33,701 nucleotides of DNA, taken from assembly GCA_002707335.2 (NCBI GenBank), contig PAMN02000015.1, forward strand, positions 1 to 33,701. Direction: 5' to 3'. Below are positions 1 to 31,477 of the stretch, in pieces. This stretch comes from Methanobacteriota archaeon (GTDB taxonomy: Archaea; Thermoplasmatota; Poseidoniia; Poseidoniales; Poseidoniaceae). The notes beneath the pieces were generated by a model. It ran no database searches, was not told the DNA's origin, and worked only from the letters and a program-made list of their open reading frames with translations. The position numbers and the translations under genes are program-made. How positions within the stretch are numbered: the stretch's first letter is position 1; each line of letters begins with the position of its first letter.

Positions 1-287
1 CATAATTCTGCTGATTTTGGATGGCATATTATTTTCCATTCTGCTTTTTGGTTACTTAAGTAACCAGATGCTTGCATAACATCTGCATCAATGTTTTCAT
101 CCATTGCAAATTCGCTTGTATCTTTAGTAAGGTTGAGTTTATTTACAGCGCTGACTGCCAAAGTAGTGTAATCACTGTCTGGACCAAATACATGAATGTC
201 TCCATCAATGAAGCGACTTTTTGCAATTATCCCTTTGTCATTGTGTAGGATAAAATATCCTTCGAAAATGGTGGAATTATTAGTCAT
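1..287 (-). CDS. CDS truncated by the left window edge (N-terminal ~95 aa visible); thiolase-fold / HMG-CoA synthase-like candidate
   Basis: Own minus-strand translation from ATG at 287-285 reads MTNNSTIFEGYFILHNDKGIIAKSRFIDGDIHVFGPDSDYTTLAVSAVNKLNLTKD... and stays open to position 1. The ATG overlaps the thiolase stop (ATGACTAA, 8-nt overlap), which suggests translational coupling. 'GPDSDYTTLAVSAVNKL' resembles the N-terminal 'P..DED..T.A..AA..AL' helix of HMG-CoA synthase/KAS-III enzymes. Archaeal thiolase genes normally cluster with HMGCS and a DUF35 protein. The rest of the visible sequence matches HMGCS poorly. Confidence 0.35.
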   Translation of the reverse strand, partial: MTNNSTIFEGYFILHNDKGIIAKSRFIDGDIHVFGPDSDYTTLAVSAVNKLNLTKDTSEFAMDENIDADVMQASGYLSNQKAEWKIICHPKSAEL

Positions 288-1455
288 TAGGAGACCTCCC
301 AAATATGTGTACTGCACAAGTTGCCCCTGAACCTCCAACATTGTGAGTTAATCCTACTTCAGCATCATCCACTTGTCTGCCTTGTTCAACATCCCCTCGT
401 AATTGCTTGAATATCTCTACGACTTGTCCAGTTCCTGTTGCCCCTAATGGATGCCCTTTAGATTTCAAACCTCCACTAGAATTTATTGTAACATCTCCGT
501 TATTCCTCATTCCTCTTTCTTGGGAGGCAAAATTTCCTCCATCTCCCTTATCTGCGAATCCAAGGTCTTCCGTTGCAAGTAATTCGGCAATTGTGAAACA
601 ATCATGAACTTCTGCTAAATCAATATTTTTAGCAGTTAAAGACGAGGATTTGTATGCTACTTCTGCGGCTTTCTTGGTGGCTATTAATTCAGTAATAGAC
701 GGTCTGTCATGAAGGGCAAGATAGTCACTTGCGGCACCCGAACCCTTAACCCACACAGGTGTGTCTGTGAATTTTTTAGCAATATGGTCTGCTGCTAGAA
801 TTACTGTTGATGCACCGTCAGATGTAGGGCAGCAATCATACAGTGTTAATGGGTCTGCAACCATAAAACCGGATTTTGCCTTATCAAAATCAACCTGTTT
901 TCTAAGATGTGCATATTCATTTAGGAATCCGTGTGTATGATTTTTCACCGAGATGTTTACCAAATCATCATGTTTGGATCCATACTCGTGAAAGTGCCTG
1001 CGTGCCATCAATGCATAAGTACCTGGGAACGTAAGGCCTGCCAGCCTTTCCCATTCAGTATCTCCACTCACGCCTAACCAGAACCTTTTCCTCTCAGGAG
1101 ATAGATCATTCATCTTCTCAATACCTCCTGCTACTACAATATCGGCTTGTCCGCTTTTGATAGCCAGCCAAGCATCCCTCATCGCAAAACCAGATGATGC
1201 ACATGCGTTTTCAACACGTCGCACAGGAATATTGTCCATTCCTGAATGTTCTGTCATTAAAGCGGCCGTATTACCTAATTGCCCACCTCCGAAAGCGGTA
1301 GAGCCAATGAAAGCCTCATCGATTATTCGAGGGTCAAAATTTTGGTCGACTGATTCAAATGCATTCAAGGCAGATTCAGCCCACATTCCCTTCAGTCCTT
1401 GCTCATGGTTGCCGTATTTTGTCTGACCAGCACCAATGATTGCAACTTCGACCAT
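280..1455 (-). CDS. Acetyl-CoA C-acetyltransferase (archaeal-type thiolase, first step of the mevalonate pathway)
   Basis: 391-aa ORF with thiolase hallmarks: active-site Cys in 'VENACASSG', 'HDCFTIAELL', 'GHPLGATG', and C-terminal 'NVGGSGATCAVHIF'. Confidence 0.9.
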   Translation of the reverse strand: MVEVAIIGAGQTKYGNHEQGLKGMWAESALNAFESVDQNFDPRIIDEAFIGSTAFGGGQLGNTAALMTEHSGMDNIPVRRVENACASSGFAMRDAWLAIKSGQADIVVAGGIEKMNDLSPERKRFWLGVSGDTEWERLAGLTFPGTYALMARRHFHEYGSKHDDLVNISVKNHTHGFLNEYAHLRKQVDFDKAKSGFMVADPLTLYDCCPTSDGASTVILAADHIAKKFTDTPVWVKGSGAASDYLALHDRPSITELIATKKAAEVAYKSSSLTAKNIDLAEVHDCFTIAELLATEDLGFADKGDGGNFASQERGMRNNGDVTINSSGGLKSKGHPLGATGTGQVVEIFKQLRGDVEQGRQVDDAEVGLTHNVGGSGATCAVHIFGRSPND

Positions 1456-2620: not shown

Positions 2621-3394
2621 ATGGGCGGGAAAGTCGTTATCAAATTTGGTGGCGGTTTAATTACTGATAAGGAAAATATGTGTACCCCTAATATGCATAT
2701 CATAGATTCTTTAGTTGATATCTTATCGAAAGTTGAAAAACAAATAATTCTAGTGCATGGCGCAGGGTCATTTGGTCACATGAAAGCCAAAAAAGCAAGA
2801 TTGGCTGAAGGAAGATTGCCTGGATTAAATCAGGATATTTCAGTACATGAAGTACGAGAAGACATGCTTTTGTTAAACAAACATGTTACAGATTCAATAC
2901 AAAGATACGAGTTAGATTATTCAACATATCCTCCAAGAGATTGGGCTGCTGGAGACGGACCAAATTTCAAGGGAAATCTACCACTTTCAGACGGAATTAC
3001 AGTTGTCTTTGGTGATGTTGTCGACGATTATGAAAAAGAATTTGCAATATTATCTGGTGACGATTTGATGTATCGATATGCAACGGAAATCCCTGATGTA
3101 GATTGTGTCATATTTGCAATGGGTGGAGTTGATGGTTTACTAAAAGTTCCGCCATCCGAAGCAACAGTGAATGATTTATTCAAAACTTGGAGTCCAGATA
3201 TGAATTTTAAAGGAGAGCACGCCACAGAGTTTGATGTAACCGGTGGTATCGGTCTAAAAGTAACAAGAGCCTCAATGATTGCTGAAAAGGGCATAGATGT
3301 CTGGCTGGTCAATGGCATGCATCCTGAAAGGATATTGGAACTTGTTGAAGGAAAAACGACAATTGGAACTAAGATAGTATCGGGGAACTGTTGA
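2621..3394 (+). CDS. ipk: Isopentenyl phosphate kinase (amino-acid-kinase fold)
   Basis: 'VVIKFGGGLITDK' and 'ILVHGAGSFGH' are the N-terminal glycine-rich/His motifs typical of IPK. Length is 257 aa, and an IDI-GGPPS gene lies immediately downstream. Confidence 0.85.
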   Translation: MGGKVVIKFGGGLITDKENMCTPNMHIIDSLVDILSKVEKQIILVHGAGSFGHMKAKKARLAEGRLPGLNQDISVHEVREDMLLLNKHVTDSIQRYELDYSTYPPRDWAAGDGPNFKGNLPLSDGITVVFGDVVDDYEKEFAILSGDDLMYRYATEIPDVDCVIFAMGGVDGLLKVPPSEATVNDLFKTWSPDMNFKGEHATEFDVTGGIGLKVTRASMIAEKGIDVWLVNGMHPERILELVEGKTTIGTKIVSGNC

Positions 3395-3430
3395 TTTAGT
3401 TGACGCGAGACCGTATCAACAGTGAGGAAC

Positions 3431-5161
3431 ATGAAAGGATACACAATTCACGATGTTCCGACAATTCATGTTGATGAGGATTCAAAAAGTAGTTTGGAAG
3501 GAACTGATTCAACTCAGGAATTATTGATGTCAGAAGCAGTAATTGAGGTAACTGAATCAGATGGGATAATTGGTCCAATTTCTAAATTCGAAAGCCACAA
3601 CGGTGTTGGTAAATATCACAGAGCATTTAGTGTATTATTATTTGACTCAAGCGGCAGGTTATTACTTCAGAAAAGAGCTAGTCACAAAATAACGTTTCCA
3701 AATGTATGGGCCAATAGCTGCTGTTCTCATCCACTTTTCAGCGATTCAGAAAAAGATGAAACTAATAATATTGGAGTAAAAAATGCTGCTGTTAGAAAAT
3801 TAGAACAAGAACTAGGAATCAGTCCAGAAGAAGTTTCTATCGACAAATTCGAATTTGTAACTAAAATGAAGTATCAGGCTAGGCAAGACCAAGATTGGAT
3901 TGAAAGAGAAATCGACCATTGTCTTGTCATTCACACTGATGTAAATTTGAACCCAAACCCCAACGAAGTTAGCGATGTAAAATGGGTCAGCCAGGCCGAA
4001 TTAGAAGAAATGCTAATCGCTAACGATCCTGAAAATGTGATTGCCCCCTGGTTTAGGTGTATCGCTGCTCGTTTGATGACAGATGATTGGTGGATGCCAG
4101 GGTGTGTTACTCCAGATGATTTGATTCACGACATGGGTGACGTTTCTCACATGCTTCCGAATGCTATAGGAGCAGATTTAACAACAAGTATAGCAGAAGT
4201 CAAAGATTTGGTTGAAAATAGAATCGAAAGAGCATTGACTCATACTAACTTAGAACGCCTGTCTGGAGCAATGATGCACTTAGTAGAAGGCGGTGGAAAG
4301 CGACTTCGAGCAACTTTACCTTGGTTAGTTGCCAAAGCCGTTGGTGACACGCATTCTGGATTACTTGATGTAGGAGCGGCGATTGAAATAATTCACAACT
4401 TCACTCTGGTTCATGACGACATTATGGATGATGATGATATTCGTAGAGGGAGAGCATCCGTCCACGTCGAGTATGATTTGCCTACAGCAATAAATGCTGG
4501 AGATGCGATGCTTGCAATCGCATTTGAAGCAATGGCTGTTGCTGAAGGAATAGAGCCAGAATTGCTACCTTTCTTGGTAAAAAGGATAGGTCGCATGGTT
4601 AGAAAATGTAGTGAAGGTCAGCAATTAGATATCGAATTTGAATCCAGAGAATCAGTTTCCGAAGAAGAATACATTGAGATGATTCATGGTAAAACTGCAG
4701 CTATGTTCCTGACTTGTGCAGAAGTAGGCGCTCATCTCGCTGGTGCAGATGAAGATACAATTCACTGTATGCATGATTGGGGTCTTGCGCTAGGGCTATG
4801 TTTCCAATTGATGGATGATCTGATAGATGTTCTTTCCGACTCAGATACTCTTGGTAAGCCCAGTGGAAGTGATGTCGCTCAAGGCAAAAGAACACTAATG
4901 GTAATCCACGCATTACAGCAACCACCATCACAATACAAGGACGATTTGTTATCTGTTCTTGGAAAAGGCGATTCGGTGACTTCTGACCAAGTAGCACTTG
5001 CTCACAGGGCACTGGACAATTTAGGTTCAATAGAATATGCAAGGAACAAAGCTGAAATGTATCATAGAAAGGCTCACGATTGTTTAGATAGATTGCCAAA
5101 ATCACCGGCAATAAAAGCATTAAAAGAACTTACAGATTATCAACTGCAGAGGATATTTTGA
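3431..5161 (+). CDS. Fusion protein: type-1 isopentenyl-diphosphate delta-isomerase (Nudix fold, N-terminal) + geranylgeranyl diphosphate synthase (trans-prenyltransferase, C-terminal)
   Basis: The track ORF begins at GTG 3422; ATG 3431 is preceded by GTGAGGA. The IDI1 core is 'HRAFSVLLFDSSGRLLLQKRASHKITFPNVWANSCCSHP' plus 'EREIDHCLV'. The prenyl synthase FARM is 'FTLVHDDIMDDDDIRRGR' (DDIMD at nt 4415-4429) and the SARM is 'FQLMDDLIDV'. Phe at position -5 from the FARM suggests a short-chain (C20) product. It is one uninterrupted frame. Confidence 0.85.
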   Translation: MKGYTIHDVPTIHVDEDSKSSLEGTDSTQELLMSEAVIEVTESDGIIGPISKFESHNGVGKYHRAFSVLLFDSSGRLLLQKRASHKITFPNVWANSCCSHPLFSDSEKDETNNIGVKNAAVRKLEQELGISPEEVSIDKFEFVTKMKYQARQDQDWIEREIDHCLVIHTDVNLNPNPNEVSDVKWVSQAELEEMLIANDPENVIAPWFRCIAARLMTDDWWMPGCVTPDDLIHDMGDVSHMLPNAIGADLTTSIAEVKDLVENRIERALTHTNLERLSGAMMHLVEGGGKRLRATLPWLVAKAVGDTHSGLLDVGAAIEIIHNFTLVHDDIMDDDDIRRGRASVHVEYDLPTAINAGDAMLAIAFEAMAVAEGIEPELLPFLVKRIGRMVRKCSEGQQLDIEFESRESVSEEEYIEMIHGKTAAMFLTCAEVGAHLAGADEDTIHCMHDWGLALGLCFQLMDDLIDVLSDSDTLGKPSGSDVAQGKRTLMVIHALQQPPSQYKDDLLSVLGKGDSVTSDQVALAHRALDNLGSIEYARNKAEMYHRKAHDCLDRLPKSPAIKALKELTDYQLQRIF

Positions 5162-5588: not shown

Positions 5589-7796
5589 TCAGTCAGAGTA
5601 GTATGATTCAGGATTTGGATCTGGCTTCAGACCTTTTCTTGTTCTGATTTCACCAACAACCTTGTCAAACAATTGAGGTGGCAGCATTTCGAATCCGGTG
5701 TTTTCTGAATTCCATACTGCTCTACCTTGGGATGCAGCTCTGATGTCATTAGAGAAACCAAATGTTTCAGCAACCGGTAATGTTCCAATTACAGTGGTTA
5801 CTTCACCTTCTGAAGGCATGTCTTCTATGATTCCTCTTCTGTTGGTAATTTCTCTTGTTACTTGCCCTAGCCAATCATTAGGAACTGAAACATGAGATCT
5901 TTGCATTGGCTCCATCAAAACGGTTCTTGCTCTCATCATTGCTCCCTTGATGCCATTTCTTACTGCAGGAATTGTTTGTGCAGGACCTCTGTGAATTGCA
6001 TCTTCGTGCAATTTTGCATCGACTAATCTCACCATCATTCCCATAACTGGTTCATCAGCGATTGGACCTTTCTTACAAACTTCATTGAACGCTTCGATGA
6101 TTAATTCTCTGGTTTCGTGAAGGTTTTGAATACCCTTTGTGTCGTTAACCAGAACATTTGTTCCGTTGATTGCGTAGATCTTTCTCATTTGATCTTTGTC
6201 CATTCCGAATTCTCCGAATTTGTTTCCAATTTCTTTCGCATCTCCAGACCTTACAGGCCCATCTCCGAAATGTCCTTCTCTCAATGCTGCGACTACTTCA
6301 TCAGAAAGTGGCTCACATTCAATCATGAATCTGTTGTGGCGATTTGGTGATTTACCCTCGAATGACCTTCCATGATTGTTTCCTTCCACAGATTCTCTGT
6401 ATACAACAATTGGTGGGCTAACTTTAACCTTGATGTTTTGCTCCTCTTCCAGTCTGTATACTGTGATTTCTAAATGCAATTCTCCCATTCCAGCTAGTAG
6501 AGCTTCACCAGTTTCTTGGTTTGTCATTACTTGCAGTGAAGCATCAGATTTTGCCAATGCTCTGAGTGCATCAATGAACTTTGGTAAGTCTTTCATGCTT
6601 TTAGGCTCGACAGCAACTGTAACTACCGGGTCTGAATAATGTCTAATTGCTTCGAAAGGAGTGAAATCTTTGTCTCTTGATAGTGTAACACCAGCCGCTG
6701 CAGAACGAATTCCAGTGATTGCAGCAATGTTTCCTGCTACGACCTTTGGCACAGTTATTCTATCTCCTCCAACCATCATACTTACTTGTTGTACTCTTTC
6801 TGGTTTCGCTGCACCGATAGCGAATACGGATTCACCTTGGTTTATTGCACCTGAGTACAATCTTCCTACTGCAACTTCTCCTGCGTGAGGATCCATCCAA
6901 ATTTTTGTAATCATCATTGCTAATTCTGCATCTGGGTCACAGCTTACCATAGCCTTACCGATTGTTGTATCTAGGTCACCATTCCAAATGTTAGGAATTC
7001 TGTAAGGTTGAGCCTCAACTGGGCCTGGTAGTTTTGTAACCGCCATGTCCAGTAATACTTCGTGAACTGGTGCTTTTCGAGATAATTCTTTTTGTTGCTC
7101 ATTGTTACAGTATTCAAAAATATCCTTGAAATTGATTCCTGTTTTCTGCATGAAAGGAACAGTAATCCCCCAGTTGTGATATGCAGAGCCGAAAGCAACG
7201 GTTCCAGTACCGACGTCAACTTGCCAAGATTTCTTGAATTCTTCAGGTGCGAATTGCCTAATCAATTTGTTAACTTTTGTTATTGTTTCTTGGAATCTAG
7301 CCATCATGTCTTCTGGAGTAACCTGAAGTTCGTTGATCAATCTGTCAACTTTGTTGATGAAAAGAACAGGCTTAACTTTCTCCTTCAATGCTTGCCTGAC
7401 AACAGTCTCAGTCTGAGGCATTGGGCCCTCAACTGCACAAGCTAGAATGAAACATCCGTCAACTGCACGCATAGCACGTGTAACGTCTCCACCAAAGTCA
7501 ACGTGACCTGGTGTGTCTATTAGATTGATTAGATAGTCAGTTCCTTCAACGGAGTGAACCATAGACGCAGATGCAGCGTTAATTGTGATTCCACGAGCGC
7601 TTTCTTGTTCATCGAAGTCTAAAACACGGCTCTTTCCAGCTAGATCTTCGCTCATCATTCCTGCCCCGGCAATCAAGTTGTCGGACAGTGTAGTCTTTCC
7701 GTGATCGATGTGCGCAGCAATACACAAATTTCTGATTTGAGGTAAGATGTGCATAACTTCTGTTGCTTTTTTGATATTGTCTTCCTTACGGCCCAT
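5589..7796 (-). CDS. fusA: Translation elongation factor 2 (aEF-2)
   Basis: GTPase motifs 'AHIDHGKTTLSD', 'DTPGHVDF' and 'NKVDR', plus the diphthamide loop 'HEDAIHRGPAQ'. The likely start is ATG 7796 (MGRKEDNIKK...) rather than the upstream track start at 7844. Confidence 0.97.
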   Translation of the reverse strand: MGRKEDNIKKATEVMHILPQIRNLCIAAHIDHGKTTLSDNLIAGAGMMSEDLAGKSRVLDFDEQESARGITINAASASMVHSVEGTDYLINLIDTPGHVDFGGDVTRAMRAVDGCFILACAVEGPMPQTETVVRQALKEKVKPVLFINKVDRLINELQVTPEDMMARFQETITKVNKLIRQFAPEEFKKSWQVDVGTGTVAFGSAYHNWGITVPFMQKTGINFKDIFEYCNNEQQKELSRKAPVHEVLLDMAVTKLPGPVEAQPYRIPNIWNGDLDTTIGKAMVSCDPDAELAMMITKIWMDPHAGEVAVGRLYSGAINQGESVFAIGAAKPERVQQVSMMVGGDRITVPKVVAGNIAAITGIRSAAAGVTLSRDKDFTPFEAIRHYSDPVVTVAVEPKSMKDLPKFIDALRALAKSDASLQVMTNQETGEALLAGMGELHLEITVYRLEEEQNIKVKVSPPIVVYRESVEGNNHGRSFEGKSPNRHNRFMIECEPLSDEVVAALREGHFGDGPVRSGDAKEIGNKFGEFGMDKDQMRKIYAINGTNVLVNDTKGIQNLHETRELIIEAFNEVCKKGPIADEPVMGMMVRLVDAKLHEDAIHRGPAQTIPAVRNGIKGAMMRARTVLMEPMQRSHVSVPNDWLGQVTREITNRRGIIEDMPSEGEVTTVIGTLPVAETFGFSNDIRAASQGRAVWNSENTGFEMLPPQLFDKVVGEIRTRKGLKPDPNPESYYSD

Positions 7797-7890
7797 AGTA
7801 TCACGACTCAGGTATGACTTGGCCACAGACAAGGGGTTTATCAAATCGACTACAATTTAGTAAATCAAATCGAATACAGTGTGCTGATTA

Positions 7891-9039
7891 TCAAGCCGTA
7901 ATTCCTGAACTAAATCGACTTTCCATTTCTTTGAAAATGGCTTTAATTTCTATTTTTAACTGGGCGTAGGATTGCTTTATCTCATTTATGCGAGCCTTTA
8001 TTTGAATTTTGGATTGTTCTATAGAGTTCTTGAGTTCTTTTTTTGCCTTGTGTAGTTCATACAAACAGGTTCTCAAAGAGTCCCTTTTGTTTTTGAAATC
8101 ATCTTCAAGCTCATTCAAATCAATTTCATTCTTTATTAATTTATTTTTTGACTTTTTGAATTTTACATTTATTTTAGCAATTTCAATTGAGTGCTTTGGT
8201 GTAGACTTCAAATTTGATTTTAATCCAACTAAATTAAAGCATTTAATCCACCATTTACTAGGATCGACATGATACCATTTGTGACCGTTCCTGTAATCAG
8301 CTTGGAATGTGTGATGGAAATTATGGTATCCCTCTCCGAATGTTAGAAATGCCAACCAAAATGAGTCTCTACTCGTATTCTCTTGCGAATATGGTTGTCT
8401 CCCCCATATGTGAGCGGCACTGTTGATCAGAAAAGTCCCGTGGTGTACGAACACAATTCTAACTATGCCTCCCCATACTAAGCATCCGATTGCAGTTCCT
8501 ATTCCACCTATCACGTATCCAATCGCTAGTGGAAAAATTATACCTGAAATAGCCCCAATTAGGAAGATATTTCTATGCTGCCACATTATGATTTTACTTT
8601 GTTTCAAATCATTGACATTTGAGAAGTCATTCTGAAAATTTTCTTCTTCAACCATTATCCATCCCATGTGAGAATACCAAAAACCTCGAGAGGCAGAATA
8701 AGGGTCATCTTCTCCATCAGTGTACTTGTGATGTTTCCTATGATCGGAGCACCATTCAATTATAGAATTCTGAAATGCACCAGCGCCGAATATCGCATAA
8801 AATAAAACCAAAGGCCAAGAAGCTTCATGCGACCTATGTGAAAATAATCTATGATATCCAACAGTAATCGACAAACCACAAGCAAAGTATAGAAAGAGGA
8901 ATACAAATAATTCGGTAAATCCGGGACTGCCGAAATAACTGTAATGGAATATTACACCAATTATTGCCAAAATAGGAGTAGCAATAAGAAATGTTGAATT
9001 CAACCAATTGATTTTAGACATAGCCGAGTATTCAGACAT
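7891..9039 (-). CDS. Acyl-CoA/acyl-lipid Delta-9 fatty-acid desaturase (membrane di-iron, stearoyl-CoA desaturase family) with a Lys/Glu-rich coiled-coil C-terminal tail
   Basis: Histidine boxes 'GYHRLFSHRS', 'DHRKHHKYTD...DPYSASRGFWYSHMGW', 'NSAAHIWG' and 'GEGYHNFHHTF', with hydrophobic TM pairs before box 1 and between boxes 2 and 3. The track ORF (to 9261) overlaps S7, so I trimmed it to ATG 9039 (MSEYSAMSK...; ATG 9021 is an alternative). Confidence 0.85.
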   Translation of the reverse strand: MSEYSAMSKINWLNSTFLIATPILAIIGVIFHYSYFGSPGFTELFVFLFLYFACGLSITVGYHRLFSHRSHEASWPLVLFYAIFGAGAFQNSIIEWCSDHRKHHKYTDGEDDPYSASRGFWYSHMGWIMVEEENFQNDFSNVNDLKQSKIIMWQHRNIFLIGAISGIIFPLAIGYVIGGIGTAIGCLVWGGIVRIVFVHHGTFLINSAAHIWGRQPYSQENTSRDSFWLAFLTFGEGYHNFHHTFQADYRNGHKWYHVDPSKWWIKCFNLVGLKSNLKSTPKHSIEIAKINVKFKKSKNKLIKNEIDLNELEDDFKNKRDSLRTCLYELHKAKKELKNSIEQSKIQIKARINEIKQSYAQLKIEIKAIFKEMESRFSSGITA

Positions 9040-9115
9040 AAAGTGCGGCGGCCAACGAACGCCTTTGACTATTTGGGTTAAATGCAGTGCAATTGTTCTA
9101 GATTGATTGTTGTGA

Positions 9116-9748
9116 TCATCTTGCGCTTGCAGCGATTCTTTGAACTTCTTCTTTCTTTGCAACTGCAAAGGAAGTAACATCACCTGAACTTGCTTTTGTA
9201 ATTTCATTAATGATACATTGTGTAAGAGTTCTCTTAGATTTAGAAGTTCCCTGTTGAGCACCTTTTGCTAGGTTTGCTAGGGCAACATCTAATCTTCTTG
9301 ATGGAGAACTGTCAACCGCTTTTGGTTGGGACACTGCTCCGAATTTGATTCTTGTTATTTCTTCCATAGGTGCGGCGTGGCATATAGCATCGACAAAGGT
9401 TTGAAGAGGATTGTCTCCACTTCGATTAGCGATACTGTCTAACGCAGCCTCGAATGCCTTCAAAGCGCCTTGCTTTTTCCCAGTGTACTTTCCTGTTCTC
9501 ATCAACTTGTTTGTGAATCTCTCAACTACAGAAAGTCTGGATTTTCCAAACCAAGCATTAGCATGCCTTCCACCAGTGTGTGGAATTCCTACAGTTGTTA
9601 GATTGATGTATGGTGCAAGACCAGGATCTCTACAAACAACTTCAGCAGCATCATATTTACCAAATACTAGGGTGCCAATGCCTGCGATGGGAGTTGCTTC
9701 AACGACTTCGTTTTCTTCAATAACTTCATCATCACTCATATCAAACAC
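9116..9748 (-). CDS. rps7: 30S ribosomal protein S7 (uS7)
   Basis: 210-aa ORF starting 6 nt downstream of uS12. It has the archaeal uS7 layout with an acidic N-terminal extension and 'SVVERFTNKLMRTGK'. Confidence 0.93.
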   Translation of the reverse strand: MFDMSDDEVIEENEVVEATPIAGIGTLVFGKYDAAEVVCRDPGLAPYINLTTVGIPHTGGRHANAWFGKSRLSVVERFTNKLMRTGKYTGKKQGALKAFEAALDSIANRSGDNPLQTFVDAICHAAPMEEITRIKFGAVSQPKAVDSSPSRRLDVALANLAKGAQQGTSKSKRTLTQCIINEITKASSGDVTSFAVAKKEEVQRIAASAR

Positions 9749-9754
9749 CTCTGA

Positions 9755-10183
9755 TTATCGTACAGGCTTCTCCTTTCGACCTCTTACCATTTCATCTAAT
9801 GAAACGCCATTTACTTGAATCACTTTGTATCTAACTCCTGGGATATCTCCGTATGAACGCCCCATGCGCCCGCCGATACCTTCTACCATTACCTCATCGT
9901 GTTCGTCAATAAAGTTGATAGCACCATCACCTGGAGCGAAAGCGGTTAGTTTGTTACCGTTTTTGATTAATGAAATCTTTACAGCTTTTCTGATACCTGA
10001 GTTAGGTTGTTTTGCTTCAATGCCAACCTTTTCGATTACTATACCCTTTGCTTGAGTAGAACCAGCAAGCGGGTCATGCTTTGCTTTTGATTTTAGCATG
10101 CGCTTTTTGTATCTACGATCCGACCATCTAAACTTTTGACGATCCTTGGCCATTTTTGCACCTGCAAATAATCCTCGACCCAT
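9755..10183 (-). CDS. rps12: 30S ribosomal protein S12 (uS12)
   Basis: Contains '[13 protein letters not shown]', '[18 protein letters not shown]' and 'IPGVRYKVI'. Length is 142 aa. Confidence 0.97.
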
Positions 10184-10321: not shown

Positions 10322-11587
10322 ATGGCATTCCGTGATTTACTGGGCAATGCTCGACTTATTAAAGATGCAACTAGTGTCCAGCACGGCATTTTTGACAAAT
10401 CAGCATCCCTAGGACATGACCTAATTATGTTCGATAATATAGTCGAGGCACCAGGGCACCGAGTAGCTACGAATTTGCTAACTCGGCCTCGTTTGTGTGA
10501 GGCGCTTCAAATTGAACCGGAGGACTTTATTGACTTACTAGGGTGGGCAATGAATAATCCAACAGAGCCTAAAATTGCATCATACGGGCCAGTGATGGAT
10601 AACCAACAAGAAGTTGTAGAATTGTCAAAAATCCCAATACCTCATCATTGGAGGGAAGATGGTGGTCGATATATGTCATCGAGTGTAATCATTGCAGAAT
10701 ACAACGGAATTAGAAATATGTCTTTTCACCGACAGTTATTGAAAGACGATAACCATCTAGTCGCTAGAATAGTACCTCGACATCTTCATGGTTTTATCAA
10801 GGAAGCAAGGAGCAATGGAGAAGAAGTAAATGTGGCAATAATAAATGCGCCCGATCCAGTTGTTTTACTTGCAGCAGCAATGTCGTTTGATTCTAACATT
10901 GACGAATTAACGATTGCAGCATCACTTCATGAAAAAGTTCACCATCGCCCACTAGAACTAGTCGCCTTACCAAATGGTATTGAAGTTCCATCTGAGGCTG
11001 AATATGCAATGTGGGGTAGAATTTTAACAACCGATGCTGATGAAGGACCATACGTTGACATAACAGGAACAGTAGATGATATTAGGCAACAACCGATAAT
11101 CGAAATTGATGGTTTAATGCACAGAAATAATCCTATATTCCACGCTTTAATTCCAGCTGAGTCTGAACATAAAACACTGATGGGTCTTCCGAGAGCACCT
11201 ACAATAAAATCAGCTGTAAGCGAGGTCTGTGAGTGTTTAGATGTTCACATGACGGAAGGAGGCGGCGGATGGCTTGCTGCTGTTGTAAAAATCAAAGTTA
11301 ACAAAGAAGGGGACGGAAAAAGAGCAATTAAGGCAGCACTTGATGGTCACAAATCAATGAAAATGGTAACTATAGTCGATGAAGATATCGATATAACAAA
11401 TCCTGTACGTGTAGAATGGGCAATGATGACTAGATGGCAGCCTGATACAGACTCAATTATTCTTTCAAATCAAAAGGGCTCTAGTCTTGACCCATCAAGG
11501 TTAGATGATGGTAACACTTCTAAAATTGGAATTGATGCTACTATACCATGGGGTTATGAAAGGTCAGGTTTCAAATCTGTTCAGTGA
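10322..11587 (+). CDS. UbiD-family (prenylated-FMN dependent) decarboxylase, short archaeal form; candidate anhydromevalonate phosphate decarboxylase
   Basis: 421 aa, with 'NMSFHRQLL' (compare UbiD 'N.G.YR.Q'), 'EGPYVDITG' (compare 'EGPFG..TG') and 'GGGGWLAAVVKI'. The family call is fairly firm. The specific substrate is inferred from its length and the isoprenoid genes in the window. Confidence 0.8.
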   Translation: MAFRDLLGNARLIKDATSVQHGIFDKSASLGHDLIMFDNIVEAPGHRVATNLLTRPRLCEALQIEPEDFIDLLGWAMNNPTEPKIASYGPVMDNQQEVVELSKIPIPHHWREDGGRYMSSSVIIAEYNGIRNMSFHRQLLKDDNHLVARIVPRHLHGFIKEARSNGEEVNVAIINAPDPVVLLAAAMSFDSNIDELTIAASLHEKVHHRPLELVALPNGIEVPSEAEYAMWGRILTTDADEGPYVDITGTVDDIRQQPIIEIDGLMHRNNPIFHALIPAESEHKTLMGLPRAPTIKSAVSEVCECLDVHMTEGGGGWLAAVVKIKVNKEGDGKRAIKAALDGHKSMKMVTIVDEDIDITNPVRVEWAMMTRWQPDTDSIILSNQKGSSLDPSRLDDGNTSKIGIDATIPWGYERSGFKSVQ

Positions 11588-26185: not shown

Positions 26186-29100
26186 TCAAGAACTCCGTCG
26201 CTTCTTTCCACCTATTCTGAGTTCAGTTTTCAGCGGCATTTGATGTTCCCAGGCAAATTCCTTCACGATTCTCCAACCCTTTTCAGAACCTTCATAATCA
26301 GTAACATCGATTGTTTTGTCTCGTGTATTAGCTTTGAATGCTGCAACAGGTTCTGCATTGTGAAATACTAGGTAAGCGCTTCCAAATCCAAATCTTTGTT
26401 TTAGGACATCAGCGAAATAGGGAGCTATTGGATCGGATGGTGGTAACACAAAATCCCTGATGGGAGGGACATTTTTTGCATCCTCTAGCAAATCTTTCTT
26501 ACCCCAACAAACTTCCATCAAATCTTTTATCAGGAATCCTTTAATCAATGTGTCATCGTCTTCAAATTCCGTTAATATTGCCTTCAATTCTTCCGGCTTG
26601 AAAGGTGTTCCTGCGAGTTTTATGAATTGTTTCAATGTTATGACTGGATAATCTGACACCAACCTCCTAAGGTATTCTTTTCTAAGTAACACTGGATCTA
26701 GACCTCGTCTTGGCGCTACAGAACGGAATCCTCCTCTGTAGTCTTGAACCATATGACCACTACGTAATAGTGGCTGTATTAGTTTCCTAAACTCTGCTCG
26801 TTTCATAGCATGTCTTTCCATGAATAAGTTAGGGTCGCTATTTGTTTCGAAGAATTCCAAAACGTCCAAAAGGTCTTCATCAGGTTCCATTCCCCTGATT
26901 GCCAAAAGTGTAGAGAAATGGTCATAAGATGCCCAAACTTGATGTCCACGAAGGTTTATTCCCTGATGTAATTGGTGGGCACTAGCCATATTTTTTAGAC
27001 TCACTCTATACAATTCAGATCTCCCTCGCAAACCAAAATCATCCCTTACTTCCTGTAGGCTGGTTAATGCTTCGATTTCATTTTCAAGTCTGGAATTTTG
27101 GTGTAAATGATGCCGATGGAATAATGCTCTTTCTGCAATTTCTTTTGGTTGGGGGTCAACTATGCCACCACGTATCATTCGCTCGCCTGCTAACTTAAAT
27201 CCAATAGACTCTAAGGCATTTTTCGAATCTCTTTCCAACTCTGTTACTGGAACGCCATTGAATTGAGATAGGACTGCAACATCTACTAACTGATCAGAGT
27301 GATTCTCAAGTAATTTTTCAAATGCAATACAGAACTCATCAAGATATGCATACGGTATGTGCATATCTTTAATTTCAAGATAATCGTTTACCTTGAACAT
27401 CAGTACTTTGCCAACAGGGTCAACACCCTTGAAAACTGGTAAATACCATCCTCTATCCAATATTGATCTTACTTCCCAGATAAATCTAGATACATAAGGA
27501 TCGGACTGGGTTAGAATTCTTAGTGACCTCTCTTCCTTTGATGGATGTGATAGCATTTTGACTTCTTCGGGTATTACATAAAATGCTTCAGGCTCAGGAA
27601 CCAATGCCATTACTTTCGAAATCTCTCCACGGTTTTCCAAATTCCTTAATGCAAGAGCAAGCTCTTCCACACTTCGAGATACATAATAACGCAATGTGAA
27701 TGCTTTTACTGGACCAATGCGTTTGATAATTTCTACCAATGAGTCTTCAAAAGACATTGGGTCATAGACATCAATTACTCTATGGAACAGTGAAAGTCTT
27801 CTTCTCCTTCCAACAACATCTTCAAATTGTTTTACTATGCATAATTGTCTTTCTAGATTGCTAATTGCATTTTTCAAATCTCTCTGCAATGATTTATGTT
27901 CTTCACCTTTAGGGAAATCTGCAAGTATTTCCTGTCGAGTAAGATTTTCTCCCTTGGGAATTTTTTCTAATATCAGCTTCTCCATTTCACCGAGCCAAGG
28001 TTCTGGTTTTAATCCCAATAACATTGGAAGATTTTCGCTAGTCGTATAACCAATTCTATTGTGTAGCAATCTTCCCATTATTACATCAGTGTCTAACTGC
28101 AGATCTTTCCAATCTGCATATCTGAAATCTTTGACCCTATACATCATTTCTTGTTGCTTTTGGAATAAAATATGATTATTAAATGCGCTAAATCCATCAT
28201 CATGCTGCTTGAAAGATTTCTGCATAACTAAATTTTGAATCCACCTGTATTCTAATACTTCTTCATCTCCTCCAGTGATTCGATGCTCATCTACTTTCAA
28301 GATATATTCTGCATCATCAGTTTGCTTGTAGAAGCCGACAGACAGAACGTTCCGCATTTCGAGTTCATGAAGGATAGAATCAATTTGACCTTGTGGGAAT
28401 GGTAATCTGTCGTTAATGTATTCTCCAGTTCTTGGTCCTTCACTACCTAACATCTCTATGATTTTGACACGAAGAGCTTCATGTGGGTCAGATATTCCTA
28501 TCTTTACCCATTTAGTGGGATTCAATCCATCATATTCAACTGATATTTCAAAATTCAAATCTTTGGTATACAAGTCTCTTATATCGGTTAAGTCCTTGCC
28601 CCCAGCACCTGCTATACAACCAAGTGTTCCATGTATTTCTGCCATGTAATCAGCAAACCATTTGTCATCGAGTTCTTTCGAACCAGTGGATTTAATTTTT
28701 CTGATTTTATCTTCTGCAGCCAATTCTTTAACCCATTTTTCTATTGTAGAATGTTCGATTCCTTTCAATTTTTCTTGATACAAAGGATTTTCCCAATTCC
28801 TATCAAGACCTCCGCCCTTCTTCATCAAATCCAACAATTCATTGGCTGAAGTAGGCTTAGGTACTTTGTCTGAATAATATTCCTGCAATTGGTCGTCTGT
28901 CAATTCAGTAGCAAGGCTTCGATTTCCTAGTAGCCTTCTCAATATTTCAGGATCAATGTCTTTGACTAGGAATGCTCGAGTTTTCATTGAAAGTAAATCT
29001 TCGAATGAACTCATGTATAGGCTCATACCTAGTTTTGAGGGTACTACTACCTTAGAATGGACGATGCGGGTCTCAGAATTCATACTTGATTCCAAGAATG

Positions 29101-31477
29101 AAGATAATGATTTAATATCGATGTCACCAAACAAAATTTCATTCTTTGCTTCCTTTATCAATAACGAATCTTCTATAGAACGATGCCTTTGGAGAAGAGA
29201 ATCCGCTCTTTGTTGAAATTGCTGTGGACTGACTTCCTCTGCTCCAATTCGTTTGGGTATAATCAAAGACCTTCCAGCAACTTCTCTGAATCTTTTTGCA
29301 AATATCTGAGTGTTTACTATGTATCTTTCAATAACCTCTATGTGATTGTTAGAACGGAACGAATCTAGCATCTCAGCGGGGTCAATAGATTGACTTGTCT
29401 TGAAAAGTAATCCATTTTCATCAAATGATAACTCCAAAACTGCGATACCAGATTGTTCTGCCAATCCTGCCATGAAGTAACCAAATGCTGTATTGAATCC
29501 CCTGCCTCTACAAGATGTAATCATGTAAGTTGGCATGCCGCCACTAACTACTTCTTCTATAATGATACGATTTGGATCGGGAACTTGGAATGAATCAAGA
29601 GTATGTTCTTGTAAATGACGAGCGATTGTATTTGCAACTCCTTCACTTAAACCATATACGTCTTTCAGAATGAGTAGAGGATCGAATTGTTTCCTAAGTG
29701 CGTTAACAGTATGACCTATCAAATCCAACAGGGCTTTCGATAGTTCTCTAGAACGACCCCTTGCTTCTCCGCTCCATGAGGGTACAGTTGGCCTATATCC
29801 TGTAACAGTGGTAACATTTACTCTTGTTCCTTGAATATTCGTAACTCTGTATGTGGAGCCACCCAATAGTATGACGTCGCCATTTCTTAAATTTGCAACG
29901 AATGATGAAGATAGTTGCCCTAGTATACTACCTTCAGCGTTGAATACTAGATACGAATTGTCTGGTGCAATTGTACCTATATTTGTGTAGTAAATCATTC
30001 TAGAGTATCCTCTCTTGCCGTATAGATTCTCTTCCCAATCAATCCATACTCTTCTTTCATCATCCAACATATCCAATACTTCGATAAATTCATCATAATC
30101 CAGATTTCTATATGACCATGTACTCTTCACAATTTCAAATGCTTCATCGATGTCCCTGTCGTTGATAATAACCAATCCAATAAGATATTGTGCTAAAACA
30201 TCGAGACAATTTTCTGGGAAATCCAATCTATCCATGTCACCAGTTTGAATAGCAGCCTGTAAAGCAGCTAGTTCCATTAAATCATCAACATTTGATGGCA
30301 AAAATCTCGCTCTGGGTATTCCACCAACATGGTGCCCTGCTCTTCCGATTCTTTGCAACGCTGTTGCTATATCCCCTGGCGAACCAACTTGAACGACCAT
30401 ATCAACGGAACCAATGTCTATTCCCATTTCTAATGAAGAAGATGTCACTACTGCACGAAGATGTCCTAATTTCAACTTCCTTTCAACATCTAGCCTAATT
30501 CTTTTGTCCATGGATCCATGATGCCCAGCGATTAAATCTCCTAAATATGGTCTTAACTTTTGAACGAGGGTTTCAGTCATCTTTCTTGTGTTAGCAAAAA
30601 CTAGGGTAGTTGTATGCGCACTGATTAAATCAGCAATCATCTCAACATTCATTTCCAAGACTTTCATAACAGATAATTCACTAAATTTAGGGGAACATAA
30701 CAAAATGTCAAGATCTAATTCTCTCGCTCCGCTTATTTTTGCTATTTTTACTGGTTGTCCAGAATTTCTAGTTTCTCTATCATCACTAGCCACTAGATAT
30801 TCAGCTACCGTCTCTAAGGGCTCCATTGTAGCAGAGATTCCAATTCGTTGAACTGGGTTTTGTAAGATTGTATCTAATAGCGAAATAGTTAGGGCGAGAT
30901 GGACTCCTCTCTTTGTAGGAACAAGTGAATGCATTTCATCTATAATTATCCATTTAACTTCAGATACAATAGGCTGGAATTTCGGTGATGAGATTGCGAT
31001 TGCCATACTTTCTGGAGTTGTGATGAGAATGTGGGGTGGCTTTCGCAGCATTTTTTGGCGTTCAGATTGTGGAGTATCTCCAGTTCTGAGACCGACTCTT
31101 ATTTTTCCTTGTGCTCTGTCAGGTAGATACTTCTCTTCCAGTTCAGTTAATGGCCCAATCAAATTCTTTTGGATATCATTTGCAAGTGCTTTGATTGGTG
31201 ATATGTACAAACAATATACTTTGTTATCCAGTTTACCATCCATTGCTTTTCTGACCAAATCATCGATTATCGTCAAGAAAGCAGTCAATGTTTTACCTGA
31301 ACCAGTTGGTGAACACAGTAATAGATGGTCTCCATCCATTATGGATGGAATAGCTAATTTTTGTGGTGCGGTAAAATCTGGAAACTTATCTTTAAACCAG
31401 TTACGAACAGGTTGGCATAATTTCTCAAATAATTCATCGGATTCTAATGGTGAATCCAAATACGAGATTTTTGCCAT
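26186..31477 (-). CDS. lhr: Lhr-family superfamily-2 helicase (Lhr-Core) with a ~900-aa C-terminal extension containing tandem winged-helix/AlkZ-like modules
   Basis: Motif I 'CSPTGSGKT', motif II 'IIDEMH', motif III 'ISATM' and motif VI 'LQRIGRAGH'. The Lhr-specific DEAD-associated region is 'GDVILLGGSTYRVTNIQGTRVNVTTVTGYRPTVPSWSGE'. The C-terminal half has two similar modules ending in 'LRILTQSDPYVSRF' (around nt 27523) and 'DFVLPPSDPIAPYF' (around nt 26455). Confidence 0.9.
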   Translation of the reverse strand: MAKISYLDSPLESDELFEKLCQPVRNWFKDKFPDFTAPQKLAIPSIMDGDHLLLCSPTGSGKTLTAFLTIIDDLVRKAMDGKLDNKVYCLYISPIKALANDIQKNLIGPLTELEEKYLPDRAQGKIRVGLRTGDTPQSERQKMLRKPPHILITTPESMAIAISSPKFQPIVSEVKWIIIDEMHSLVPTKRGVHLALTISLLDTILQNPVQRIGISATMEPLETVAEYLVASDDRETRNSGQPVKIAKISGARELDLDILLCSPKFSELSVMKVLEMNVEMIADLISAHTTTLVFANTRKMTETLVQKLRPYLGDLIAGHHGSMDKRIRLDVERKLKLGHLRAVVTSSSLEMGIDIGSVDMVVQVGSPGDIATALQRIGRAGHHVGGIPRARFLPSNVDDLMELAALQAAIQTGDMDRLDFPENCLDVLAQYLIGLVIINDRDIDEAFEIVKSTWSYRNLDYDEFIEVLDMLDDERRVWIDWEENLYGKRGYSRMIYYTNIGTIAPDNSYLVFNAEGSILGQLSSSFVANLRNGDVILLGGSTYRVTNIQGTRVNVTTVTGYRPTVPSWSGEARGRSRELSKALLDLIGHTVNALRKQFDPLLILKDVYGLSEGVANTIARHLQEHTLDSFQVPDPNRIIIEEVVSGGMPTYMITSCRGRGFNTAFGYFMAGLAEQSGIAVLELSFDENGLLFKTSQSIDPAEMLDSFRSNNHIEVIERYIVNTQIFAKRFREVAGRSLIIPKRIGAEEVSPQQFQQRADSLLQRHRSIEDSLLIKEAKNEILFGDIDIKSLSSFLESSMNSETRIVHSKVVVPSKLGMSLYMSSFEDLLSMKTRAFLVKDIDPEILRRLLGNRSLATELTDDQLQEYYSDKVPKPTSANELLDLMKKGGGLDRNWENPLYQEKLKGIEHSTIEKWVKELAAEDKIRKIKSTGSKELDDKWFADYMAEIHGTLGCIAGAGGKDLTDIRDLYTKDLNFEISVEYDGLNPTKWVKIGISDPHEALRVKIIEMLGSEGPRTGEYINDRLPFPQGQIDSILHELEMRNVLSVGFYKQTDDAEYILKVDEHRITGGDEEVLEYRWIQNLVMQKSFKQHDDGFSAFNNHILFQKQQEMMYRVKDFRYADWKDLQLDTDVIMGRLLHNRIGYTTSENLPMLLGLKPEPWLGEMEKLILEKIPKGENLTRQEILADFPKGEEHKSLQRDLKNAISNLERQLCIVKQFEDVVGRRRRLSLFHRVIDVYDPMSFEDSLVEIIKRIGPVKAFTLRYYVSRSVEELALALRNLENRGEISKVMALVPEPEAFYVIPEEVKMLSHPSKEERSLRILTQSDPYVSRFIWEVRSILDRGWYLPVFKGVDPVGKVLMFKVNDYLEIKDMHIPYAYLDEFCIAFEKLLENHSDQLVDVAVLSQFNGVPVTELERDSKNALESIGFKLAGERMIRGGIVDPQPKEIAERALFHRHHLHQNSRLENEIEALTSLQEVRDDFGLRGRSELYRVSLKNMASAHQLHQGINLRGHQVWASYDHFSTLLAIRGMEPDEDLLDVLEFFETNSDPNLFMERHAMKRAEFRKLIQPLLRSGHMVQDYRGGFRSVAPRRGLDPVLLRKEYLRRLVSDYPVITLKQFIKLAGTPFKPEELKAILTEFEDDDTLIKGFLIKDLMEVCWGKKDLLEDAKNVPPIRDFVLPPSDPIAPYFADVLKQRFGFGSAYLVFHNAEPVAAFKANTRDKTIDVTDYEGSEKGWRIVKEFAWEHQMPLKTELRIGGKKRRSS

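Follow-up and report, generated by a model that had tools for sequence, protein, structure and literature searches.

The genes for ribosomal proteins S12 and S7 and for elongation factor EF-2 are among the most conserved gene strings known. The stretch of DNA analysed here (33,701 nucleotides of contig PAMN02000015.1, referred to below as the window) therefore raises the question of how a gene with the features of a Delta-9 fatty-acid desaturase comes to stand inside this string, and what its product might do in an archaeon. The window belongs to the core chromosome of an archaeon of Marine Group II (Ca. Poseidoniales, Poseidoniaceae), a group that is uncultured and very abundant, outnumbering all other archaea in the surface ocean. 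Strict contiguity of S12, S7 and EF-2, as in the archaeal str-type cluster, is not found in the window: the order is kept, and a 1.15-kb gene lies in between. A first-pass annotation of the window had described this gene as a desaturase frame of 383 amino acids interrupting the string, on the same strand as its neighbours and separated from them by gaps of 76 and 94 nt. The coordinates bear out the interruption, the shared strand and both gaps, and the frame comprises 382 amino acids and a stop codon, with all of the listed histidine boxes present.

The explanation that best accounts for the evidence as a whole, and that on these sequence-based grounds is considered likely with good confidence, is that the gene encodes an SCD-type acyl desaturase with an acyl-lipid role, and that it forms an autonomous unit lodged in a polymorphic slot. 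Parts of this picture are already known, since the desaturase is annotated in public metagenome-assembled genomes (MAGs) and the idea of mixed lipids has been published. Two modest additions are made by the present analysis: the polymorphic slot, in which one locus preserves the scar of a deletion, and a promoter-like box that accompanies the gene into other contexts.

Predicted family, active site and fold of the desaturase

The Delta-9 desaturase assignment made in the first pass is upheld by the domain search proposed along with it, by similarity to SCD1 and by the predicted fold. The protein matches the Pfam family FA_desaturase (PF00487) over residues 46-259 with E=9.5e-19 and a score of 68.6 bits, against a gathering cut-off of 29.7. 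It is recognized by phmmer as similar to mouse SCD1 (E=5.4e-48, residues 40-288) and human SCD1 (E=3.5e-46), and a BLASTP comparison with the mouse protein gives 34% identity over 241 amino acids (E=2e-52). Its histidine boxes, HRLFSH (residues 63-68), HRKHH (100-104), NSAAH (206-210) and HNFHH (239-243), have their counterparts in the HRLxSH, HRxHH, NSAAH and HNxHH boxes of SCD1; the segment DPYSASRGFWYSHMGW occupies residues 112-127. Nine histidines (H63, H68, H100, H103, H104, H210, H239, H242 and H243) and one asparagine (N206) correspond to the metal site of SCD1, and all ten are invariant across 40 Poseidoniales sequences.

An AlphaFold2 model built from these 40 sequences has a pLDDT of 80.9 and a pTM of 0.73, and places four predicted membrane-spanning helices together with the di-iron ligands in a core formed by residues 1-281. 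When this model is compared with the PDB using Foldseek, the only significant matches are SCD1 chains (E about 1e-13, target-normalised TM 0.73-0.75), the rest being noise. The likeness extends to the residues Gln147, Trp153 and Thr261 of human SCD1, a triad that has been proposed to kink the substrate tunnel at C9-C10 (PMC8533217). The triad aligns to the Q and W of AFQNSIIEW and to the T of GTFLINSAAH in the window protein; the W and the T (W96 and T202) do not vary across the 40 Poseidoniales sequences, while the Gln position is occupied by Glu in some of them.

Assignment to a more specific bacterial family was considered and rejected. The DesA family of NCBIfam (NF049918, an equivalog) is the sole specific NCBIfam model matched by the window protein, but the score of 83.4 bits lies far under the curated cut-off of 400, and six relatives (four other Poseidoniales desaturases and two bacterial neighbours) also fail, with 64-90 bits. 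The protein is thus a predicted SCD/OLE1-type Delta-9 desaturase-like membrane di-iron protein outside the Pseudomonas DesA family. In Pseudomonas aeruginosa, DesA is a phospholipid Delta-9 desaturase and DesB an acyl-CoA desaturase, so that both substrate classes are served in one bacterium (PMC10634369). Both are aerobic membrane Delta-9 desaturases, and the DesA model aligns to window residues 46-357, the tail included; unlike these two enzymes, the window protein has no DesC-like oxidoreductase or DesT-like regulator nearby.

The core is followed by a tail of 101 residues, which had been noted in the first pass as rich in Lys and Glu and as more AT-rich by eye, and which is so on both counts: it contains 20 K, 4 R, 11 E and 4 D, giving a net charge of about +9, and has a GC content of 0.29 vs 0.38 for the core. 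The model predicts two helices here, a short one (residues 282-302) and a long one (309-381), at a pLDDT of about 80-90. A tail of similar length was seen in each of the 120 close homologues and, among 150 family representatives, in 85, the proteins from Bacteriovoracia and Deltaproteobacteria being two of these; the Lys-rich helical tail is a family-wide appendage and no peculiarity of the window gene. The tail is likely to rest on the membrane surface or to bring about oligomerisation.

Compared with SCD1, the window protein differs in this roughly 100-residue tail, which is not found in the crystallised SCD1 chains, in its short N-terminus, in the lack of an evident cytochrome b5 partner nearby and in its archaeal host. 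A closer likeness is found in prokaryotic SCD-like desaturases of about 380-400 amino acids, represented by one protein from Bacteriovoracia (P0146) and one from Deltaproteobacteria (P0281). These share with the window protein the length class, 42-45% identity and a region of about 140 residues after HNFHH that includes the charged tail, and among named sequences they lie closest to the archaeal clade, from which they differ in that the Poseidoniales desaturases form a separate clade of their own. We know of no characterised enzyme among close bacterial relatives of this kind.

The S7/EF-2 junction as a polymorphic slot

The history of the junction can be followed in 80 species-level genome loci that were fetched using S7 as the anchor query. 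All but one of these (79 of 80) come from Poseidoniales-type, or Marine Group II, records, the remaining locus (L060) being filed under a Verrucomicrobiales bin, and identity across the set is 92-100% for S12 and 86-97% for EF-2. Between S7 and EF-2, 26 loci carry the desaturase, 17 a gene for a protein of 129 amino acids and 10 a tandem GGACT gene; 26 are empty, with S7-EF-2 gaps of 91-304 nt, and one is undetermined. The junction is thus without a desaturase, being either empty or occupied by another gene, in 53 of the 80 loci. The S7/EF-2 junction in Poseidoniaceae is a permissive, polymorphic slot.

Loss of the desaturase from the slot has left a trace in locus L028. Directly after the S7 stop codon this locus has ATAAGCAAGCAAAGACTGCTGCATAA, which corresponds to the last desaturase codons (...YKQAKT[TA]A and the stop) of L019, L009 and L007. 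It retains about 27 nt of the 3' coding end of the desaturase together with the whole downstream spacer, 142 of 152 nt being identical to L007, and this retention marks the locus as a deletion scar. In L004 and L016 the spacer is kept only from the desaturase stop codon onward, a state that fits either a deletion or the condition before insertion, so that L028 is the only unambiguous deletion scar. In a tree of EF-2 sequences the window falls in clade A, most members of which have the desaturase, and the empty loci of this clade (L004, L016, L017, L025, L026 and L028) are nested among the desaturase-bearing ones; a Poseidonia-like clade B is without a desaturase in the slot. The desaturase would on this evidence have been in the slot since before the split of the deepest sampled lineages, to be deleted later in at least one lineage and to be absent or replaced by other genes in others.

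The other occupants of the slot were also recorded. In ten Poseidoniaceae species a same-strand gene for a tandem GGACT/AIG2 protein of about 280 amino acids, with two gamma-glutamyl-cyclotransferase domains (PF06094, E=5.6e-31), is found between S7 and EF-2 (L031 6968-7810; L035 7653-8510; L038, L044, L046, L048, L050, L052, L079 and L080). In seventeen species the slot holds a gene for a protein of about 129 amino acids with the conserved sequence FVKFVSDP...GLACAA..DGH.V.VFFAA.G...SGPPGVIAL (L037 743-1198; L047 7611-8060; L040, L041, L049, L054-56, L059, L060, L062, L066, L068-70, L073 and L077), for which no Pfam, NCBIfam or PDB sequence match was found. The possibility that the larger S7-EF-2 gaps (530 nt and 985 nt) contain desaturase remnants was rejected, since they hold these intact, unrelated reading frames.

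Age and origin of the gene

Homologues of the desaturase number in the thousands, the best 120 being 66-98% identical to the window protein and about 380-383 amino acids long; the named records among these 120 are all fatty acid or acyl-CoA desaturases of Ca. Poseidoniales, Poseidoniaceae or Euryarchaeota MAGs. In the desaturase tree all Poseidoniales sequences, sampled in six genomic contexts, fall into a single clade that excludes every other 50%-identity representative, with identities spanning about 39% to 98%, and the slot-resident desaturases form one subclade. The order S12-S7-desaturase-EF-2 occurs in the 26 desaturase-bearing genomes mentioned above, including one contig of 1.5 Mb and contigs named as single-cell assemblies (AH-273-F07 and AG-461-G23). 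Three further desaturases (P0271, P0298 and P0340), of only 54-57% identity, lie in a UbiD-S12-S7-desaturase-EF-2(-IDI/GGPPS) arrangement; the S7 and EF-2 proteins of these loci are 72-75% and 82-83% identical to those of the window, and the loci fall outside all others in the EF-2 tree.

The nearest named outsiders in the desaturase tree are bacterial (P0146 and P0281), while mouse SCD1 branches far from the window protein in a family tree, among longer proteins. The suggestion of a eukaryote-type gene fares poorly here, as the architecture of about 380 amino acids with a long tail is common to the two named bacterial homologues. Neither direct nor inverted flanking repeats, nor a target-site duplication, tRNA or Rfam element, were found in the window, and insertion by a mobile element was rejected on the lack of these features. 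As judged from the sequence relationships, the desaturase is an old and widespread Poseidoniales gene and not a fresh insertion, and an ancient bacterial origin of the whole archaeal desaturase clade is plausible. The comparison of synteny recommended in the first pass, which asked whether the arrangement is ancestral and universal in the clade, gives a divided answer: it is old and clade-wide but, being present in 26 of 80 loci, not universal, and its reading as an insertion is downgraded to that extent.

Promoter-like boxes and transcription

In 20 of 33 upstream regions a consensus box, AGTCAATAA, precedes the desaturase start codon, its end lying 19-23 nt away (22 nt in 15 loci). The motif is rare, with only 9 occurrences at up to one mismatch on both strands of the window. 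The window's own version, AGTCAAAGG at 9070-9062, has three mismatches to the consensus, in a register that was placed by eye. Leaderless archaeal transcripts are expected to have a box at about -27 relative to the start codon, and the desaturase box is probably a TATA-like element of such a transcript. The consensus box also stands at the same distance of 22 nt before the desaturases of two other Poseidoniaceae (L085 and L086), which are about 50% identical and lie in a beta-oxidation-like cluster. The desaturase thus seems to be an autonomous unit with its own promoter wherever it is located.

EF-2 has an upstream element of its own. An AT-rich stretch followed by ACCC(C) begins 52-56 nt before the EF-2 start codon in 73 of 73 readable loci, whatever lies upstream. 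The exact window form CGATTTGATAAACCCC is present in 27 loci, and a variant, CTTAAGAACCCC, takes its place in nearly all of the remaining 46; the form characteristic of clade A is CGATTT[CG]ATAAACCCC, nearly all the rest having CTTAAGAACCCC. A ribosome-binding motif of the GGTGA/GGTGG type directly precedes the EF-2 start in most of the 73 loci. The EF-2 box could be a promoter or a 5'-leader element.

In the S7-desaturase spacers comparable to that of the window, which are found in 26 related loci, a palindrome is followed by an ACCC...GTCAA box. The palindrome is short and perfect and lies just upstream of the desaturase box in most spacers, for example GGTGTTGCTAGCAACACC, the window sequence being TGCACTGCA; it is seen in L012 (about 7620-7650), L013, L024 and L002. 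It could serve to terminate S12-S7 or be the operator to which a desaturase regulator binds.

Other genomic contexts, proposed mechanism and the lipid question

Desaturases of this clade that lie outside the slot are informative about function. In L085 (1228-6949) and L086 (1205-6961) the gene order is enoyl-CoA hydratase, PaaA/PaaC-like di-iron protein, a small reading frame coding for an unknown protein, 3-hydroxyacyl-CoA dehydrogenase, desaturase and enoyl-CoA hydratase. In L092 (432-5170) the desaturase comes directly after genes for a glycosyltransferase, an NAD-dependent epimerase and a member of the FA_hydroxylase family (PF04116), all on the same strand, which may constitute a lipid or glycolipid modification cluster. 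Further contexts are beside MscS and PheRS, beside a PPIase, and after S8e and SRP19. The beta-oxidation-like and L092 contexts tie the desaturase, by gene neighbourhood, to acyl-CoA or lipid metabolism.

The gene is predicted to encode a functional di-iron acyl desaturase of the SCD/OLE1/DesC-like kind that is bound to the membrane and depends on O2. By homology, the four membrane-spanning helices would anchor a cytosolic cap in which the nine histidines and the asparagine hold two irons, and the kinked tunnel set by the Gln-Trp-Thr triad would place C9-C10 of a C16-C18 acyl chain at this site. Two electrons from a donor encoded elsewhere, together with O2, would then remove two hydrogens to leave a cis-Delta-9 double bond. 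The acyl carrier may be CoA or a glycerolipid, between which the sequence cannot tell. The transcription unit would be lodged between the S12-S7 unit and EF-2, with its own box 22 nt before the ATG, and its transcript is probably leaderless. The monounsaturated acyl chains would be made from imported or recycled saturated fatty acids, and the products would serve in ester-type or mixed membrane lipids, or in the control of membrane fluidity, in cold, oxic surface seawater.

The first-pass annotation had stated that a fatty-acyl desaturase has no obvious substrate in an archaeon, a view that is overstated for Poseidoniales. Their genomes have been reported to lack a G1P dehydrogenase and to possess a G3P dehydrogenase and bacterial-like ester-lipid genes, and beta-oxidation genes are present in all Poseidoniales genera (PMC6461757, PMC7852524). 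A mixed-membrane hypothesis for Marine Group II was put forward by Villanueva et al. 2017, as cited in Rinke et al. 2018 (PMC6461757) and in PMC7852524; the missing G1P dehydrogenase and the bacterial-like lipid genes are reported as its grounds, it concerns the same order as the host of the window, and a conserved acyl desaturase fits it. The fatty-acyl or mixed-lipid alternative offered in the first pass would thus fit published ideas. Beta-oxidation needs no Delta-9 desaturase, and retention of the gene across the order therefore points to structural or regulatory uses of acyl chains, in cells that would do more with them than burn them. A more far-reaching proposal, that Marine Group II membranes consist in part of monounsaturated fatty-acyl lipids, ester or mixed, with a G3P backbone, the chains of which are tuned by this SCD-type desaturase clade, is tentative and less likely than not.

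In the literature searched, which did not extend to subscription papers, no work linking Marine Group II or Poseidoniales with a fatty-acid desaturase was found, the only desaturases encountered being phytoene or carotenoid desaturases; a preprint on archaeal fatty-acid synthase does not mention desaturases.

Alternative explanations

Three other explanations have to be set against that of an SCD-type acyl desaturase encoded by an autonomous unit. The first-pass reading of the gene as horizontally acquired can be taken to mean a recent transfer from a bacterium or a eukaryote, and it may be widened to include a junction that is merely a chimera of assembly or binning. The GC content would be compatible with either, since it is 0.35-0.36 across 8001-9000 (0.355 for the gene itself) vs 0.41-0.43 in the flanks, and the nearest named homologues beyond Marine Group II are bacterial at 42-45% identity. 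Other stretches of the window are, however, equally AT-rich, and the AT-richness of the desaturase is attributed to its amino-acid composition (Lys, Asn, Ile and Phe); its GC3 of 0.332 and its codon-usage distance of 0.071 are mid-range among the window genes. Misassembly was rejected because the order recurs in 26 independent species-level genomes and the codon usage is native, and a recent transfer sits badly with a single Poseidoniales-wide clade that diverges internally to about 39% identity, with an order that extends to deep lineages and with the absence of a target-site duplication or terminal inverted repeats around the gene. A recent acquisition or a chimera is therefore extremely improbable. 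The proposal that a single S12-S7-desaturase-EF-2 transcript includes the desaturase, whose expression would then follow translation and growth rate, is favoured by the shared strand and short spacers, by the absence of an evident oligo-T terminator after S7 or the desaturase (as judged by eye only), and by the retention of the order in deep lineages, which shows that it is at least tolerated in the long term. This proposal, also made in the first pass, is doubtful and on balance unlikely, since the desaturase box keeps its 22-nt distance when the gene is in the beta-oxidation-like cluster, EF-2 has its own box in every readable locus and a ribosome-binding motif in most, the slot is empty or filled by unrelated genes in the majority of loci, and the desaturase has been deleted in L028 without disturbing its neighbours.

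The remaining explanation concerns chemistry: the protein could be a di-iron enzyme that acts on another lipid, such as an isoprenoid or ether-lipid chain, or that has a different regiospecificity or hydroxylase activity. The isoprenoid-lipid precursor genes in the same window, the low score against the DesA model, the pairing of the desaturase with FA_hydroxylase-family and sugar-modifying genes in L092 and the lack of a characterised archaeal member could all be cited in its favour. They have to be balanced against the identity to SCD1 with retention of all metal ligands and of the triad, a predicted fold that matches SCD1 only, and the occurrence of other copies among enoyl-CoA hydratase and 3-hydroxyacyl-CoA dehydrogenase genes; moreover, the sole archaeal lipid-chain desaturase in the literature searched is a radical-SAM enzyme (bioRxiv 10.1101/2025.10.20.683597). 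Such an enzyme is accordingly given a low probability, well below an even chance.

Several points weigh against the preferred explanation, that of an autonomous SCD-type acyl desaturase. No electron donor (cytochrome b5, ferredoxin, flavodoxin or reductase) lies beside the desaturase in any context seen. The claim that no cytochrome b5 or ferredoxin gene is adjacent to it holds among the window reading frames scanned against Pfam, in which neither domain was found, several of these frames having no Pfam match. Both trees are neighbour-joining trees from BLOSUM distances, midpoint-rooted and without support values, so that their topology is indicative only, and most non-archaeal representatives carry no taxon name; of 20 representatives looked up among the closest relatives outside Marine Group II, 2 are named. 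The same-strand spacing would permit read-through from S12-S7 into EF-2. To our knowledge, no archaeal member of the family has a measured activity, substrate, regiospecificity or lipid product.

Implications

The case for hybrid membranes, which are already suspected in Marine Group II, is strengthened by a conserved O2-dependent acyl desaturase that appears to be inherited vertically, and one small gene that can be expressed heterologously offers a handle on this membrane question. If fatty-acyl membranes do exist in the group, the desaturase would be a genetic marker for a natural breach of the archaeal/bacterial lipid divide. The locus is also a clean example of a polymorphic slot inside a highly conserved gene string. 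The slot, the deletion scar and the box that moves with the gene call for caution in inferring function from adjacency to translation genes.

Gene model and neighbouring genes

The maximal reading frame of the desaturase begins at a GTG at 9261 and encodes 456 amino acids (7891-9261, minus strand), but it overlaps the last 146 nt of S7. The start adopted here, at 9039, is backed by 39 homologues aligned with the window protein, which consistently begin at MSE.... Over-extended starts are seen in some public gene calls (P0001 has 425 and P0004 has 415 amino acids), and family lengths in the databases are inconsistent. The coordinates of the features are collected in Table 1.

Table 1. Positions of the desaturase, its promoter-like boxes and the genes around it in the window
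Feature	Coordinates	Strand	Basis or remark
Desaturase coding sequence	7891..9039	-	ATG 9039, TGA 7893-7891; 382 aa + stop
Lys/Glu-rich helical tail, residues 282-382	7894..8196	-	AlphaFold2 model and composition
Desaturase-specific promoter-like box TTAACCCAAATAGTCAAAGG	9062..9082	-	3' end 22 nt before ATG; no Shine-Dalgarno after it
S7-desaturase spacer, 76 nt	9040..9115	-	Small palindrome (TGCAnTGCA), then promoter-like region; direct sequence reading
Desaturase-EF-2 spacer, 94 nt	7797..7890	-	Direct reading; homologous to spacer left in relatives without desaturase
EF-2 upstream box CGATTTGATAAACCCC (GTAGTCGATTTGATAAACCCC)	7833..7848	-	Starts 52 nt before EF-2 ATG
Partial tandem copy of EF-2 box, GTATTCGATTTGATTTAC	7864-7878	-	24 nt further upstream; repeat D2
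Ribosomal protein S12 gene	9755..10183	-	PF00164, E=8.8e-44
Ribosomal protein S7 gene	9116..9748	-	Stop TGA 9118-9116; PF00177, E=4.9e-33
EF-2 gene	5589..7796	-	ATG at 7796; domains GTP_EFTU, EFG_III, EFG_IV, EFG_C
Thiolase	280-1455	-	Isoprenoid-precursor gene of the window
IPK	2621-3394	+	Pfam scan of window reading frames
NUDIX-GGPPS (NUDIX-polyprenyl-synthase) fusion	3422-5161	+	Pfam scan
UbiD-family decarboxylase	10322-11587	+	Divergent from S12, upstream of S12

The Pfam matches confirm that IPK and IDI-GGPPS are encoded in the same window, as had been stated in the first pass. They also identify a MOSC gene as the downstream neighbour of EF-2. Archaeal housekeeping genes are present as well, namely those for exosome subunits, proteasome alpha, SBDS, L37ae, diphthamide synthase, TiaS, an Lhr helicase and a class II aminoacyl-tRNA synthetase, and it is from these and the isoprenoid-precursor genes, together with the records of the homologues and related loci, that the window is assigned to the core chromosome of its host. 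A role as the decarboxylase of the archaeal-type mevalonate pathway is conceivable for the UbiD homologue. The block in which UbiD is followed by S12-S7, EF-2-MOSC and IDI-GGPPS, with the intervening slot, is kept across related loci. The Lhr-type helicase (26186-31477, minus strand) is a protein of 1763 amino acids with DEAD, Helicase_C, WH_Lhr and DEAD_assoc domains, and has an AlkZ-like DNA-glycosylase domain in its C-terminal half.

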